From: Actinomycetota bacterium
Lineage (GTDB): Bacteria > Actinomycetota > Actinomycetes > S36-B12 > UBA5976
Length of the DNA: 64,000 bases
Direction: 5' to 3'
NCBI GenBank assembly: GCA_026393095.1
Contig: JAPLAV010000047.1
Location: 1,430-65,429, forward strand
In this document: positions 55,102 to 60,235 of the stretch, piece after piece
Numbering within the stretch: position 1 is the first letter of the stretch
How the letters are laid out: every line of letters starts with the position of its first letter
The notes under the pieces: model-generated
The model's input: the letters and a program-made list of their open reading frames with translations, nothing else
What the model was told of the DNA's origin: nothing
Database searches by the model: none
Translations under genes and position numbers: made by a program

Positions 55102-56445
55102 TTATCTGACATAGGTTCTAGCATTTTCGCTGAAGCCTGTGAAAGATTTAGCATCGGTTTTTCCAGGGATCTTTTCCACTTTAATGGTTCCATCAGCATT
55201 TACCTGCACGGCCAACAAACCAACGACTTTATTTGAACCACTCAGGGTGTAACCCTTTTTAGGTTTATTTGGATTATGCGCAGATCCATCTGAGTTCTTA
55301 ATCTCAAATTCAACCAACGAAATAACTGCGGGGGTTGAAGCAGATGAGGTTAGCGTTTTTGGATCAACGTTGCCAACACTCATGAATTGGCATGGGCAGC
55401 CTTCCCAATCTCCAATGCTGTAAATAAATGATTTGTTGTCAACTGCGTCTGGAGCAATCGCTAAATGGGTATCCCAGTAGCCTCGTGCAACTTTGCCATG
55501 ATTGTCATAGCTTGCTGTTTGATCACCTTTACCTCTATAACCATTTGAATCTTTTTCAAACCAGTTACCTTGAGCTGTTCCTTCTTGATCCCAATCAATT
55601 TTGCCATCAAATGGCGCGGTTGCTTTTAGGGATATTGCTTCTAATTTACTTTTCTCGGCAGCTGGAAAATAGTCAAAAGGATTTGCGGTGTAGCTTTTCC
55701 AGGATTCTGCTTGTGAGTATGAATCAGGATTTGCAAATACAAGTTTTACATTCTGATCAAAAGTTGAAAAATCATATCCAGGAGAAACAGAATCATCTGC
55801 AACAGTTTGTCCTGCTTTTACCGCAGCACCCATTGCGATACCTTCACCCAATTTTCCAATGTGAATAAATACTGAATAAAGATCGCAAGAATGTTCAATT
55901 ATGACTCTGTGGTCAGGGTATGGATAATTATTTGTTTTTTGGAAATCCTCAAGACCAACAATTTTGCCATCAGCTGGACTTGTAACTAGGTATGAACCAT
56001 CTGCTACTGGGGTTTGAGAGTTCTCAGGATAGTAAACATAAATGTGATCAATAGGTGTGATGTGTGTACCGAGCATGCCACCCATTGGATAAATGTGTGA
56101 CATTTTTGATACATCACCAATGCCTGCTGTGTATTTATTTACTTTTGAGTCGGCATCACATTGTCCGCCAGAAAAAATTTGCGAAATTGTGCCACCACCC
56201 ATTGGTTTTTCGCCACCTTCTGGTCGCCAAACTAATTTTCCATCACCCATAACTTGGCAAAGTAATTCGTTACCATCTTCGCCTTGTCCACGATCACCTT
56301 CTTTTTCACAAAGAAAACCTTCAGTTACACCACCTGCACTGTTTTGTCCCTGTCCTTGTTGTCCGCCTTGGTCGTCTTTTGGTCCACCACCACAAGCTGT
56401 TAGCAATAAAGAGAGAATTGCGATTGGCAAAATTAGTTTTATCAC
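55102..56445 (-). CDS. Secreted lipoprotein of unknown function with possible degenerate LytM/M23-like domain
   Basis: 447 aa with a GTG start 7 nt after GAGGAG. Lipobox LLLTAC followed by the Gly/Gln-rich linker GGGPKDDQGGQQGQGQ. The segment ADGKIVGL…HRVIIEHSCDLYSVFIHIGKL…VKAGQTVA resembles an M23 barrel but has no HxH motif. Confidence 0.6.
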   Translation of the reverse strand: MIKLILPIAILSLLLTACGGGPKDDQGGQQGQGQNSAGGVTEGFLCEKEGDRGQGEDGNELLCQVMGDGKLVWRPEGGEKPMGGGTISQIFSGGQCDADSKVNKYTAGIGDVSKMSHIYPMGGMLGTHITPIDHIYVYYPENSQTPVADGSYLVTSPADGKIVGLEDFQKTNNYPYPDHRVIIEHSCDLYSVFIHIGKLGEGIAMGAAVKAGQTVADDSVSPGYDFSTFDQNVKLVFANPDSYSQAESWKSYTANPFDYFPAAEKSKLEAISLKATAPFDGKIDWDQEGTAQGNWFEKDSNGYRGKGDQTASYDNHGKVARGYWDTHLAIAPDAVDNKSFIYSIGDWEGCPCQFMSVGNVDPKTLTSSASTPAVISLVEFEIKNSDGSAHNPNKPKKGYTLSGSNKVVGLLAVQVNADGTIKVEKIPGKTDAKSFTGFSENARTYVR

Positions 56446-56687
56446 TGGTGAACTCCTCAGTAGTTAATGGGGCAAGTCTTTCACTTATTTGTGGAGTTTC
56501 ATATTGTGCAACGATTAATTCTTGCTTAGTTAATTGTGAAGGTTTTCCTCCACCCACGACACACCTTCCAAGCTCAGACACGCCGTGGTGAACTTCTGGT
56601 TAAGTTCTCATTAAGGCTTTGACCTGCGAAAACGTCACTTGCGTAACTCCTGAAACACCTTTAACGCAACTTGCGGTGCCCCGGTGG

Positions 56688-56716
56688 TTGCAAATGTCGG
56701 ATCAAAGTACTAATGT
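56688..56716 (+). promoter_or_regulatory. Candidate sigma-70-type promoter of the nrdR-nrdJ operon
   Basis: TTGCAA (56688-93), a 17-nt spacer, then TAATGT (56711-16). It lies about 160 nt upstream of the nrdR start. Confidence 0.45.
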
Positions 56717-56717
56717 T

Positions 56718-56733
56718 GCACTACATCTTGTGG
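56718..56733 (+). promoter_or_regulatory. NrdR-box-like palindrome overlapping the predicted transcription start
   Basis: gcACTACATCTTGTGg matches 12 of 16 positions of the NrdR box consensus acaCwAtATaTwgtgt (consensus recalled from memory). It begins 2 nt after the -10 hexamer. Confidence 0.4.
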
Positions 56734-56775
56734 TGGAAATGGCGGAAACGTCCATTAGTTGGGGTTAAACCCAAG

Positions 56776-56852
56776 TTATCCACAGCAGATGAGCCCAAAA
56801 GACGAAGGCTACAAGCCAGTTATCCACAGGGCGAAACCCACGGTTATCCACA
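56776..56852 (+). promoter_or_regulatory. Cluster of three perfect DnaA boxes (TTATCCACA) in the nrdR leader
   Basis: GTTATCCACA occurs three times in the same orientation, with the 9-mers at 56776-84, 56820-28 and 56844-52 (spacing 44 and 24 bp). All lie between the candidate promoter and the nrdR SD/start. Confidence 0.6.
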
Positions 56853-56875
56853 CCATATTTGATTGGAGCACGGCA

Positions 56876-57391
56876 TTGTTCTGTCCTTTTTGCCGTCACT
56901 CTGATTCAAGAGTGGTTGATTCCAGAGCAACAGATGACGGTTCAGCAATTAGACGTCGTCGTCAATGCCCTGAATGTGATCGCAGATTTACCACCATCGA
57001 AGTTGCAACATTAAGTGTTGTGAAAAGAAGTGGTGTGATTGAACCGTTTTCAAGAGCAAAAGTTGTTAATGGTTTAAGAAAAGCTTGCCAAGGAAGACCC
57101 GTCACAGATGATGACTTGGCATTGCTGGCACAAAAAGTAGAAGAAGCAGTACGCGCATCTGGTGCAGCAGCAGTTGATTCACATGAAGTAGGACTAGCAA
57201 CACTTGCTCCACTTCGTGAATTAGATGAAGTTGCTTATTTGCGTTTCGCAAGTGTGTATCGCTCTTACGAATCTTTAGAAGATTTCGAATCAGAGATTTC
57301 ACTACTTCGCACAGCTCGAGAACTCGGGGACGTTTCCGTCGCTATTGCCACTAAGGGTGACAAAAGTGTCGAGGACGGCTCGGAGAAATAA
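56876..57391 (+). CDS. nrdR: Transcriptional repressor NrdR
   Basis: I set the start at TTG 56876, 7 nt after GGAG, giving (M)[16 protein letters not shown]…[10 protein letters not shown] (zinc ribbon) plus an ATP-cone. The 39-codon upstream extension in the ORF track is the DnaA-box leader. Confidence 0.9.
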
Positions 57392-57436: not shown

Positions 57437-60235
57437 ATGACAGACATGATCAGCGGCGGCTTCAAATTAGGTCGCAAGCAAGCACGTGGCATTGGAATGC
57501 AACGCGTATTCACCAAAGAAGGTGTTCATCCTTATGACGATGTCAAATGGGAACGTCGCGACGTAGTTCAAAACAATTGGAAAACTGGTGAAGTTGTTTT
57601 CGAACAAAAAGGTGCAGAATTTCCTGACTTTTGGTCTGTTAATGCTTCAACCATTGTTACCACTAAATATTTTCGTGGCGCAGTAGGTGCTGATAATCGT
57701 GAATGGTCATTAAAACAATTAATTGATCGTGTAGTTCTTACTTACACAAAAGCTGGAAAAGTTGGCGGATACTTTGGGTCAGATAATGACGCAAAAGTAT
57801 TTGAAGAAGAATTAACTTACATGTTGCTACACCAAGTATTTTCTTTCAATTCACCAGTTTGGTTCAACGTTGGAACATCTGCACCACAACAAGTAAGCGC
57901 ATGCTTCATCTTGAGTGTGGAAGATTCCATTGATTCAATTCTTAACTGGTACAAAGAAGAAGGCGTAATTTTCAAAGGTGGATCAGGTGCTGGAGTTAAC
58001 CTTTCACGCATCCGTGGATCTCTTGAATTACTTTCTTCAGGTGGAACTGCTTCAGGTCCAGTTTCATTTATGCGTGGTGCTGATGCATCTGCAGGAACAA
58101 TCAAATCAGGTGGCGCAACAAGACGTGCGGCCAAAATGGTTGTACTTGATATTGATCATCCAGATGTTGAAGAATTTATCGATACCAAAGCTCGCGAAGA
58201 AGACAAAATTAGAGCGCTACGTGATGCAGGTTTTGATATGGATCTTGGTGGCAAAGACATCATTTCTGTGCAATACCAAAACGCAAATAACTCAGTAAGA
58301 GTTTCTGATGATTTCATGAAAGCTTATGAAAACAATCAAGACTTTAACTTGACTGCACGCGCAGATGGTCATGCTGTTAAAACTGTAAATGCTCGATCCC
58401 TATTCAGAAAACTTTCTGAAGCTGCATGGGGTTGTGCTGATCCTGGTATTCAATACGACACCACAATCAATGACTGGCACACCAGTCCAGAAACTGGTCG
58501 TATCAATGCATCTAACCCATGCTCTGAATACATGCATCTTGATAACTCAAGTTGTAACCTTGCATCTTTGAACTTAATGAAGTTCTTAAAAGATGATGAC
58601 ACTTTCGATGCTGACAAGTTCAAGAAAACAGTTGAATTTGTAATCACCGCTATGGAAATTTCAATCTCATTTGCAGATTTCCCAACACCAGCAATTGGTC
58701 AAACCACTAGAGATTTCCGTCAACTAGGAATTGGTTATGCAAACCTAGGTGCATTGTTAATGGCACTTGGTCTTGCTTATGACTCAGATGCAGGAAGAGC
58801 ATTAGCTGCATCAATTACCTCATTGATGACTGGTACTTCTTACAAGAGAAGTGCTGAAATTTCAGCAATCGTGGGACCTTACGTTGGTTACGCTCGCAAC
58901 GCTGATGCACACAAACGTGTAATTCGTAAACATGCTGCAGCAAATGATGCTGTAAAAATTGATAGCGAATTAGATCGTTCCGTTCACCAATTAGCAACAC
59001 AAGTTTGGCAAGAAGCAATCAAACTTGGTGAAGTTCACGGTTATAGAAACGCACAAGCAAGTGTGTTAGCTCCAACTGGAACCATTGGTTTGATGATGGA
59101 TTGTGACACCACCGGAATTGAACCAGATCTTGCATTGGTTAAATTCAAGAAAATGGTTGGTGGCGGTTCAATGCAAATTGTGAACCAAACAATTCCAAGA
59201 GCACTTCGTCGTCTTGGTTACACCGAAGAAACCGTGGAAGCAATTGTTGAACACATCGGTGAACACGGAAACATCATTGATGCTCCTGGTCTAAAACCAG
59301 AACATTACTCAGTCTTTGATTGTGCAATGGGAATTCGTTTCATTAGCCCAATGGGACACGTGAAAATGATGGCAGCAGCACAACCATTCTTATCTGGTGC
59401 AATTTCCAAAACCGTAAACATGCCATCAACTGCCACAGTTGAAGAAGTTGAAGATGTTTACTACCAAGGTTGGAAATATGGTTTGAAAGCTTTGGCAATC
59501 TATCGCGATAATTGCAAAGTTGGACAACCTCTAAGTGATGCAAGTAGTAAAGAAGAATCTTCTTCAACACCACAAGGAATTAGTTCTCTGCCAATTCGTC
59601 AACGTCTACCAAAATCACGCGCTGGAATGACAACCTCATTCTCAGTAGCCGGTGCTGAAGGTTACATGACAACTTCTGCTTATGCAGATGGTCGTTTAGG
59701 TGAAGTATTCCTAAAGATGAGCAAGCAAGGTTCAACTCTTGCTGGCATCATGGATGCATTCTCAATTGCTGTATCAATTGGCTTGCAATACGGTGTACCT
59801 CTTGATCAATACGTTCAAAAATTCACCAACATGAGATTTGAACCATCAGGAATGACCGATGATGAAGATGTGCGCATGGCTCAATCTGTAATGGATTACA
59901 TCTTCAGAAGATTAGCTCTGGATTACTTGCCAGAAGAACACAGAAGTGCATTAGGAATCTTTACTGCAGCAGAAAGAAAGAATGCAGTAAATGAGGCCTA
60001 CGCAACTCCTGCAGAAATCGAAGCAGTAGCAACAGATTTTGTGCCAACTACAACTCTTCCAGTGGTAGAAAAAACAAACAGTGCTGCTCCTGCTAGAAGT
60101 TCCATGGAAGTTTTGGAATCTCTAACTGGTTTGAAATCTGATGCACCACTGTGTATGACTTGTGGTGTGAAAATGAGAATGGCTGGATCATGCTTCGTCT
60201 GTGAAGGATGCGGTAACACCAGCGGTTGTTCATAA
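57437..60235 (+). CDS. nrdJ: Vitamin B12-dependent ribonucleotide reductase (class II)
   Basis: 932 aa. Active-site region NASNPCSEYMHLD. The C-terminal Cys-rich tail CMTCGVKMRMAGSCFVCEGCGNTSGCS is typical of actinobacterial NrdJ. Confidence 0.95.
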   Translation: MTDMISGGFKLGRKQARGIGMQRVFTKEGVHPYDDVKWERRDVVQNNWKTGEVVFEQKGAEFPDFWSVNASTIVTTKYFRGAVGADNREWSLKQLIDRVVLTYTKAGKVGGYFGSDNDAKVFEEELTYMLLHQVFSFNSPVWFNVGTSAPQQVSACFILSVEDSIDSILNWYKEEGVIFKGGSGAGVNLSRIRGSLELLSSGGTASGPVSFMRGADASAGTIKSGGATRRAAKMVVLDIDHPDVEEFIDTKAREEDKIRALRDAGFDMDLGGKDIISVQYQNANNSVRVSDDFMKAYENNQDFNLTARADGHAVKTVNARSLFRKLSEAAWGCADPGIQYDTTINDWHTSPETGRINASNPCSEYMHLDNSSCNLASLNLMKFLKDDDTFDADKFKKTVEFVITAMEISISFADFPTPAIGQTTRDFRQLGIGYANLGALLMALGLAYDSDAGRALAASITSLMTGTSYKRSAEISAIVGPYVGYARNADAHKRVIRKHAAANDAVKIDSELDRSVHQLATQVWQEAIKLGEVHGYRNAQASVLAPTGTIGLMMDCDTTGIEPDLALVKFKKMVGGGSMQIVNQTIPRALRRLGYTEETVEAIVEHIGEHGNIIDAPGLKPEHYSVFDCAMGIRFISPMGHVKMMAAAQPFLSGAISKTVNMPSTATVEEVEDVYYQGWKYGLKALAIYRDNCKVGQPLSDASSKEESSSTPQGISSLPIRQRLPKSRAGMTTSFSVAGAEGYMTTSAYADGRLGEVFLKMSKQGSTLAGIMDAFSIAVSIGLQYGVPLDQYVQKFTNMRFEPSGMTDDEDVRMAQSVMDYIFRRLALDYLPEEHRSALGIFTAAERKNAVNEAYATPAEIEAVATDFVPTTTLPVVEKTNSAAPARSSMEVLESLTGLKSDAPLCMTCGVKMRMAGSCFVCEGCGNTSGCS

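Follow-up and report, generated by a model that had tools for sequence, protein, structure and literature searches.

Three perfect copies of the DnaA box TTATCCACA are located in the leader of a ribonucleotide reductase (RNR) operon of a freshwater actinobacterium, which raises the question of which protein reads these sites and for what purpose. The window, i.e. the whole stretch of DNA analyzed, was 64 kb in length. The operon consists of nrdR (56876-57391, + strand), encoding a protein of 171 amino acids from a TTG start codon, and nrdJ (57437-60235, + strand), encoding a class II (B12-dependent) ribonucleotide reductase of 932 amino acids. Pfam identified Zn_ribbon_NrdR (1-42/42) and ATP-cone domains in the first product and Ribonuc_red_2_N, Ribonuc_red_lgC and TSCPD domains in the second, which confirmed the nrdR-nrdJ identity proposed in the first-pass annotation. 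The NrdR of the window is 99% identical to the NrdR of an 'acTH1' freshwater actinobacterial MAG. In one relative (L096-L099), an intein carrying a LAGLIDADG homing-endonuclease domain splits nrdJ, and the products are about 1231-1396 amino acids long.

The alignment to the Zn_ribbon_NrdR profile starts at the first residue of the protein read from TTG (56876-56878). A Shine-Dalgarno sequence, GGAG, was read from the sequence at 56865-56868 (+ strand), 7 nt 5' of this start codon, and GGAG or AGGAGG is found at the same place in relatives. A longer nrdR reading frame of 210 amino acids (56759-57391) runs through the box cluster, and most of the public NrdR calls for the clade (P0001-P0009 and others) are 200 amino acids long with an ATG at position 56789, within the box cluster, as start. 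Both are considered over-extensions, because the zinc ribbon profile begins at TTG 56876. A coding function of the box region as an N-terminal extension of NrdR was rejected, since L002 and L009 have lost the frame through 1-2 nt indels and the domain begins at TTG 56876. The extension had been called an artefact at the outset, and this view holds. As a by-product, the extension of public NrdR calls through the box cluster emerges as a systematic annotation artefact in this clade.

Upstream of nrdR, on the minus strand, Pfam identified a lipoprotein (weak M23 match) and an ATG22/MFS transporter. The intergenic region between the divergent genes is 430 bp long and has a GC content of 46%, compared to 39% for the window. 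A weak match to the Rfam thermoregulator family ROSE_2 was seen at 56444-56512 (20.8 bits, E=0.069; the gathering score of the family is 65). This match overlaps the start of the minus-strand lipoprotein gene and was judged to be a chance hit.

A scan of both strands of the window gave exact copies of TTATCCACA at 56776-56784 (box 1), 56820-56828 (box 2) and 56844-56852 (box 3), all on the + strand, and thereby reproduced all three coordinates of the triplet reported previously within 77 bp. Box 1 is found in the context aGTTATCCACAGc, box 2 in AGTTATCCACAGG and box 3 in gGTTATCCACAcc. A G precedes each copy, resulting in the 10-mer GTTATCCACA with starts at 56775, 56819 and 56843, and a 12-mer, AGTTATCCACAG, is common to boxes 1 and 2. 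Measured from start to start, box 2 lies 44 bp from box 1 and box 3 lies 24 bp from box 2, corresponding to gaps of 35 and 15 bp, in contrast to the gap of 2-3 bp which defines close pairing in E. coli. A series of weak boxes repeated every 11 bp from box 1 to box 2 (44 = 4 x 11) was considered and rejected, the intervening 9-mers matching the consensus at only 3 of 9 positions.

No other perfect copy of TTATCCACA was present on either strand of the window, for which shuffled sequence gave a mean of 0.51 copies. Copies with one mismatch were at background level (24 observed, 20.5 expected). The probability of at least three copies in any 77-bp stretch of the window was about 2.5e-6 by a Poisson estimate. 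The cluster is therefore real and not a product of chance, as had been argued from the letters at first sight. Membership of a dispersed repeat, which had been named as a possible objection, was not observed either: about 310 kb of clade DNA, partly redundant, contained 65 perfect copies in nrdR leaders and 2 elsewhere.

A candidate promoter is located at 56688-56716 (+ strand) with the -35 element TTGCAA (56688-56693), a spacer of 17 bp and the -10 element TAATGT (56711-56716), which is of the actinobacterial TANNNT type. A simple sigma-70 scan made no call at this position, and the assignment is based entirely on conservation in the clade, where TTGCA and TA...T are invariant or almost so in the alignments. 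Transcription would start at approximately position 56723, about 7 nt past the -10 element, and the three boxes would then be found at about +54, +98 and +122 of the leader. The candidate promoter and the Shine-Dalgarno sequence flank the triplet, in accordance with the location between promoter and nrdR ribosome-binding site given in the first-pass annotation.

A pair of NrdR boxes, absent from the earlier reading, directly adjoins the DnaA box cluster. An NrdR operator consists of two boxes of 16 bp with a linker of 15-16 bp; the key positions of each box are C4, A6, A8, T9, T11 and G13, of which C4 and G13 are critical (PMC13584703). NrdR box 1 (56718-56733, GCACTACATCTTGTGG) has all six key positions, and NrdR box 2 (56749-56764, CGTCCATTAGTTGGGG) has C4, A6, T11 and G13. 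The linker between the two is 15 bp, in agreement with the rule. In both boxes C4, A6, T11 and G13 were invariant in 26 of 26 aligned leaders, described below, with drift at the remaining positions, and the middle dinucleotide of box 2 was variable. A palindrome of 16 bp, TTGGGGTTAA(A/C)CCCAA, at 56759-56774 shares bases with the right half of NrdR box 2 and stops 1 bp short of DnaA box 1. This palindrome was almost invariant in the 26 leaders, and no covariation within it was found in the leader alignments. The order of elements in the leader is thus promoter, NrdR box 1, NrdR box 2 with the palindrome, three copies of TTATCCACA, Shine-Dalgarno sequence and TTG start.

Other conserved blocks were observed 60-160 bp upstream of the nrdR promoter, namely GACAC motifs at 56558-56562 and 56577-56581 (the second as GACACGCCG) and the block TTGACCTGCGAAAACG at 56619-56634. 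The cores GACACGCC and TGACCTGCGA are also found upstream of nrdR in relatives with a GC content of 57-74% (L087, L094, L096, L088, L120-L123). The GACAC and TTGACCTGCGAAAACG blocks point to putative sites for further regulators, and a WhiA-type GACAC site is one idea as to their identity.

The three sites were found in 10 out of 10 species-level relatives in the genome collection (NrdR 85-99% identical, 38-45% GC) and also in L081 (NrdR 81% identical, 47% GC). A pattern scan of metagenomes was anchored on NrdR box 1 and the palindrome only, to avoid selecting for DnaA boxes, and resulted in 19 loci, all 19 upstream of nrdR. These and the loci fetched earlier gave 26 distinct leaders from an acTH1/Nanopelagicales-like clade, which were aligned. 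All three sites were retained in every one of the 26 leaders, so the conservation check proposed with the first-pass annotation came out in favor of the boxes, and the spacers were seen to drift. Box columns were 95% identical (22 of 27 invariant) compared to 79% for spacer columns (15 of 63 invariant), with a Mann-Whitney p value of 1.5e-6, uncorrected for phylogeny. The starts of boxes 1 and 2 were 44 bp apart (range 42-45) and those of boxes 2 and 3 were 24 bp apart, with 25 bp in a single relative.

The gene upstream of the leader varies between lineages: in the window it encodes a lipoprotein, L081 has a glycosyltransferase gene at this place, and LysM/LexA are found in others. The leader element is constant while the upstream gene changes, which shows that the element belongs to nrdR. 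In relatives of the Microbacteriaceae type (L012, most of L015-L080, L092, L093), nrdR follows right after a conserved upstream gene with a very short spacer. Neither an NrdR box pair nor DnaA-like boxes were found in these upstream spacers, even in the one with a GC content of 43-45%. The whole leader module is accordingly lineage-specific.

The conservation of single positions was the decisive result with regard to the identity of the sites. All three sites in the window match the DnaA consensus TTATCCACA (relaxed form TTWTNCACA) at nine of nine positions. Among the 26 leaders, box 1 was TTATCCACA in 13 and TTTTCCACA in the other 13. Box 2 was invariant at all nine positions in 26 of 26, and its flanks AG...G were likewise kept. 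Box 3 was found as TTATCCACA, TTGTCCACA, TTATACACA and TTTTACACA, and as CCATCCACA or TCATCCACA in one subclade. Positions 4, 6, 7, 8 and 9 were invariant in all 78 box instances (26 leaders with three boxes each). Position 3 was A, T or G, position 5 was C or A (A in TTATACACA and TTTTACACA, at box 3 of 8 of the 26 leaders), and positions 1-2 varied only at box 3 of the one subclade with CCATCCACA and TCATCCACA. Presumably the DnaA of this lineage has the box specificity of the general DnaA consensus. The substitution pattern is the degeneracy of that consensus, quoted as TTWTNCACA/TTATNCACA in PMC2533591, and the sites are therefore read as DnaA boxes, which upholds the canonical DnaA box identity first suggested for the triplet as far as base sequence can tell. 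The context gTTATCCACAg is found at many ChIP-verified DnaA sites of E. coli, and TTTTCCACA is found at such sites as well (PMC11317965).

Three observations speak against the DnaA reading. Binding to a single consensus box often goes undetected in E. coli, where the stable sites are pairs 2-3 bp apart (PMC11317965), compared to gaps of 35 and 15 bp here. Such close pairing favors stable cooperative binding but is not obligatory for DnaA box clusters. Box 3 has drifted to CCATCCACA in one subclade, and in high-GC relatives the left half of NrdR box 2 likewise has the core TCCACAG(G) of the sites. With these points taken into account, it is reasonably probable that the three copies of TTATCCACA are high-affinity DnaA boxes which add an initiator input to the NrdR control of nrdR-nrdJ.

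DnaA could also be bound by the triplet mainly for another purpose. The main role of the cluster would then be that of a titration site or reservoir for DnaA, in the style of the B. subtilis clusters or E. coli datA, and not control of nrdRJ transcription. Perfect boxes should be occupied by DnaA for most of the time and are very rare elsewhere in the clade (2 in about 310 kb), and three of them in a small, streamlined genome would make up a sizeable share of the non-origin high-affinity sites. The genome size of the clade may be about 1 Mb, the longest clade contig being 1.1 Mb. Titration by chromosomal boxes is an accepted mechanism (bioRxiv 10.64898/2026.05.06.723188; PMC2533591). A site of the datA type is characterized by at least four boxes and an IHF site, but only three boxes were counted here and no IHF-type partner site was evident. 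To our knowledge, Actinobacteria are without classical IHF. Moreover, the distance of the cluster to the NrdR operator and to the Shine-Dalgarno sequence of nrdR is always kept, whatever the upstream gene, which points to a cis-regulatory role. Titration as the main role is thus considered quite unlikely. Titration and transcription control are not exclusive, and titration alongside control of the operon is possible, being compatible with the observations though without specific support from them.

A different protein was considered as well, in the first place NrdR itself. The sites could be extra NrdR contacts, either half-boxes or decayed third to fifth NrdR boxes, which extend the repression complex downstream. 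This was weighed seriously because the TCCACAG(G) core is common to NrdR box halves, a point likewise absent from the earlier reading. Relatives have ATCCACAG as the left half of their NrdR box 2 (CATCCACAGGTTGTGG in L045, L120 and L122). TCCACAG(G) is the most widely shared k-mer of nrdR leaders, found in 11 of 13 lineages, and NrdR box 2 of high-GC relatives begins with it as its left half (CGTCCACAGGTTGTGG). What may be a third NrdR box is present in L087, with a linker of 5 bp, and in L014, where TATCCACAGCTCGCGG lies 16 bp after box 2, and three NrdR boxes are known for Thermotoga nrdJ (PMC13584703). The core CCACA, the control region and the operon are common to both kinds of site.

However, NrdR boxes are 16-bp partial palindromes, paired with linkers of 15-16 bp and dependent on C4 and G13, and the triplet shows the opposite conservation. 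Placed in the NrdR frame, the sites carry only C4, A6 and A8 and are without T11 and the critical G13, and isolated boxes are not bound by NrdR (PMC13584703). Position 5 of the DnaA box is equivalent to the NrdR-critical C4, and 8 of the 26 leaders have an A there at box 3. In contrast, the positions to which NrdR is indifferent (DnaA positions 4, 6 and 8) are invariant in 78 of 78 instances. The sites are direct repeats and not palindromes, and they are spaced by 28, 44 and 24 bp, in disagreement with the phasing of 31-32 or 42-43 bp known for NrdR boxes. NrdR half-sites in the clade of the window were rejected on the conservation of single positions together with the rules for NrdR boxes, and an NrdR function of the triplet is judged improbable.

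The resemblance between the two kinds of site is a confounder in relatives with a GC content of 57-74%, the leaders of which contain many DnaA-like boxes (at most one mismatch) after the NrdR pair. In L096 the array TTATCCCCA-gg-TCATCCACA-cc-TTGACCACA-ggt-TTGTCCCCA was found. Co-oriented arrays of DnaA-like 9-mers with gaps of 2-3 bp are seen in L096 (about 1350-1410), L087 and L119-L123; many of the 9-mers overlap NrdR-like 16-mers, and these 16-mers include plausible third NrdR boxes. The raw count of DnaA-like boxes in the high-GC leaders was 11 in 1.4 kb compared to 2 in 71 kb, but only 8 of 21 DnaA-like matches remained after masking of NrdR-like 16-mers. In L123, the halves of the NrdR boxes (TCGTCCACA.. 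and ..TTGTGCACA) themselves score as DnaA boxes. The perfect copies of TTATCCACA in L013 and L014 (70% GC) fall within NrdR-like 16-mers, in L014 at the canonical linker of 16 bp. The enrichment in high-GC leaders was rejected as support for the DnaA reading: the matches overlap NrdR-like boxes, so that the enrichment is largely confounded by extra NrdR-like boxes (8 of 21 clean) and is not independent support. DnaA-like and NrdR-like sites may be interleaved in actinobacterial nrdRJ leaders more generally. A practical consequence is that NrdR box halves (CCACA and TTGTG) mimic DnaA box halves, which constitutes a trap for box-density origin finders and regulon finders in Actinobacteria.

Another protein that binds direct repeats, e.g. 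an OmpR-family cell-cycle regulator such as MtrA, could use the motif GTTATCCACAG. Three co-oriented repeats would suit such a protein, the conservation reaches 1-2 bp past the 9-mer (AG...G), and the other conserved, unexplained blocks upstream indicate that further factors act at the locus. For this explanation to be true, three matches to the DnaA consensus at nine of nine positions and a degeneracy of the DnaA type would have to be a coincidence, and we know of no actinobacterial regulator with the motif GTTATCCACAG. The explanation is therefore regarded as distinctly improbable.

The boxes are situated in the presumed 5' UTR and all are on the sense strand, so the repeats might instead work at the level of the mRNA, either by forming a structure or by recruiting an RNA-binding protein or sRNA. 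Between boxes 2 and 3, a small hairpin with one compensatory change is found in a single subclade (L008 at about 2945-2965, L009, L010, L105 and L118). The hairpin is GGCTAG-AAAAA-CTAGCC, or GGCAAG...CTTGCC in other members (T:A to A:T). It sits where box 3 has decayed to CCATCCACA and is absent in L081 and the group of the window. A search of the leader against Rfam gave no match at gathering score and only chance-level matches at E<=10. The z-score of the single-sequence fold was -1.34, and RNAalifold found compensatory changes in 0 of 15 and 1 of 22 pairs in alignments of 10 and 26 leaders, respectively. A structured RNA or riboswitch was rejected on these grounds (no Rfam family, z-score of -1.34, almost no compensatory pairs), and a role of the repeats in RNA is very unlikely. 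Origin finders based on box density would flag the cluster, with its three perfect boxes in 77 bp and its location in the 430 bp that separate two divergent genes. It is nevertheless extremely improbable that the cluster is a replication origin or part of one, since no dnaA or dnaN lies beside it (five neighboring genes by Pfam, and nothing suggestive in the ORF list), GC skew follows local gene orientation without a switch at 56.5 kb, no AT-rich unwinding element is found beside the boxes (intergenic region 46% GC compared to 39% for the window) and the element stays with nrdR when the upstream gene changes. The first-pass annotation had already dismissed oriC.

The preferred reading remains that of DnaA acting on the operon. 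Since the boxes are found in an RNR leader and are conserved in relatives, the synthesis of dNTP precursors is probably tied to replication initiation in this freshwater actinobacterium. The operon would be autoregulated, with the box triplet as its second operator. Transcription would begin at the conserved promoter (56688-56716), and NrdR, a dATP/ATP sensor, would occupy the box pair at 56718-56764, which overlaps the predicted start site. DnaA would occupy the three co-oriented boxes of the leader. When free DnaA is abundant, RNA polymerase would be impeded, either by a roadblock or by stabilization of the adjacent NrdR complex; repression is the sign we infer. Because the boxes lie downstream of the predicted start, a roadblock or a stabilized NrdR complex is the simplest model, and by analogy with known DnaA-repressed genes a repressive roadblock is probably the mode of action; activation instead of repression is possible. 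After initiation, when DnaA is drawn away or inactivated, repression would be relaxed, and expression of the class II reductase would in this way track the replication status.

A more far-reaching version of the model is a two-input gate, in which a DnaA array in fixed register with the NrdR operator switches the only or main RNR of these freshwater Actinobacteria together with its repressor by a roadblock, the triplet also serves as the principal extra-origin DnaA sink, and variants with interleaved or overlapping DnaA-like and NrdR-like boxes may be widespread in high-GC Actinobacteria (L096, L119-L123). Taken as a whole, this version is doubtful. The conserved cluster next to the NrdR operator would provide a compact cis-element, about 110 bp in length.

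Outside E. coli and a few other models, control of dNTP synthesis by DnaA is not well established. Full-text literature searches gave no link of DnaA boxes to nrdR/nrdJ leaders, class II reductases or Actinobacteria. If true, the present reading would mean that an uncultured, highly streamlined lineage has retained or evolved anew the coupling of precursor supply to the initiator.

The cluster was compared with known non-origin clusters of DnaA boxes. E. coli datA is a non-origin cluster of high-affinity boxes able to sequester DnaA, which is a likeness to the triplet. In contrast to the triplet, datA needs IHF, promotes hydrolysis of DnaA-ATP and has more boxes, and nothing comparable is visible here, where the cluster is in fixed register with promoter, operator and Shine-Dalgarno sequence. 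The chromosomal DnaA-box cluster of Streptomyces also consists of non-origin high-affinity boxes which could sequester DnaA. The B. subtilis clusters at dnaA, ywlC, yydA and sda are similar to the present cluster in that they lie between genes, consist of consensus boxes and are kept in related species (PMC2533591). Repression by DnaA through occlusion or a roadblock is the mode thought to operate in B. subtilis, and a titration role has also been proposed for these clusters (PMC2533591). They differ from the triplet in that they usually contain more boxes, many of them with one mismatch, and have no link to RNR.

The closest parallel is found in E. coli, where DnaA binds and regulates nrdAB and binds nrdDG (PMC11317965) and where DnaA-ATP is reported to repress nrdAB, for which Gon 2006 and Olliver 2010 are cited. 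Common to nrdAB/nrdDG and the present locus are DnaA boxes in the control region of an NrdR-repressed RNR operon, the box context gTTATCCACAa/g and a coupling of dNTP supply to the initiator, which here is predicted. The boxes of the present operon are likewise situated within the control region, between the promoter with the NrdR operator and the Shine-Dalgarno sequence. DnaA control of RNR genes is thus already known from E. coli nrdAB and nrdDG, and the layout found here is somewhat different. The nrdAB site of E. coli is a close double box with a gap of 3 bp, located upstream of or at the promoter of a class Ia enzyme. The putative site described here has three separated boxes downstream of the predicted transcription start, in the leader of an operon for the repressor NrdR as well as a class II enzyme.
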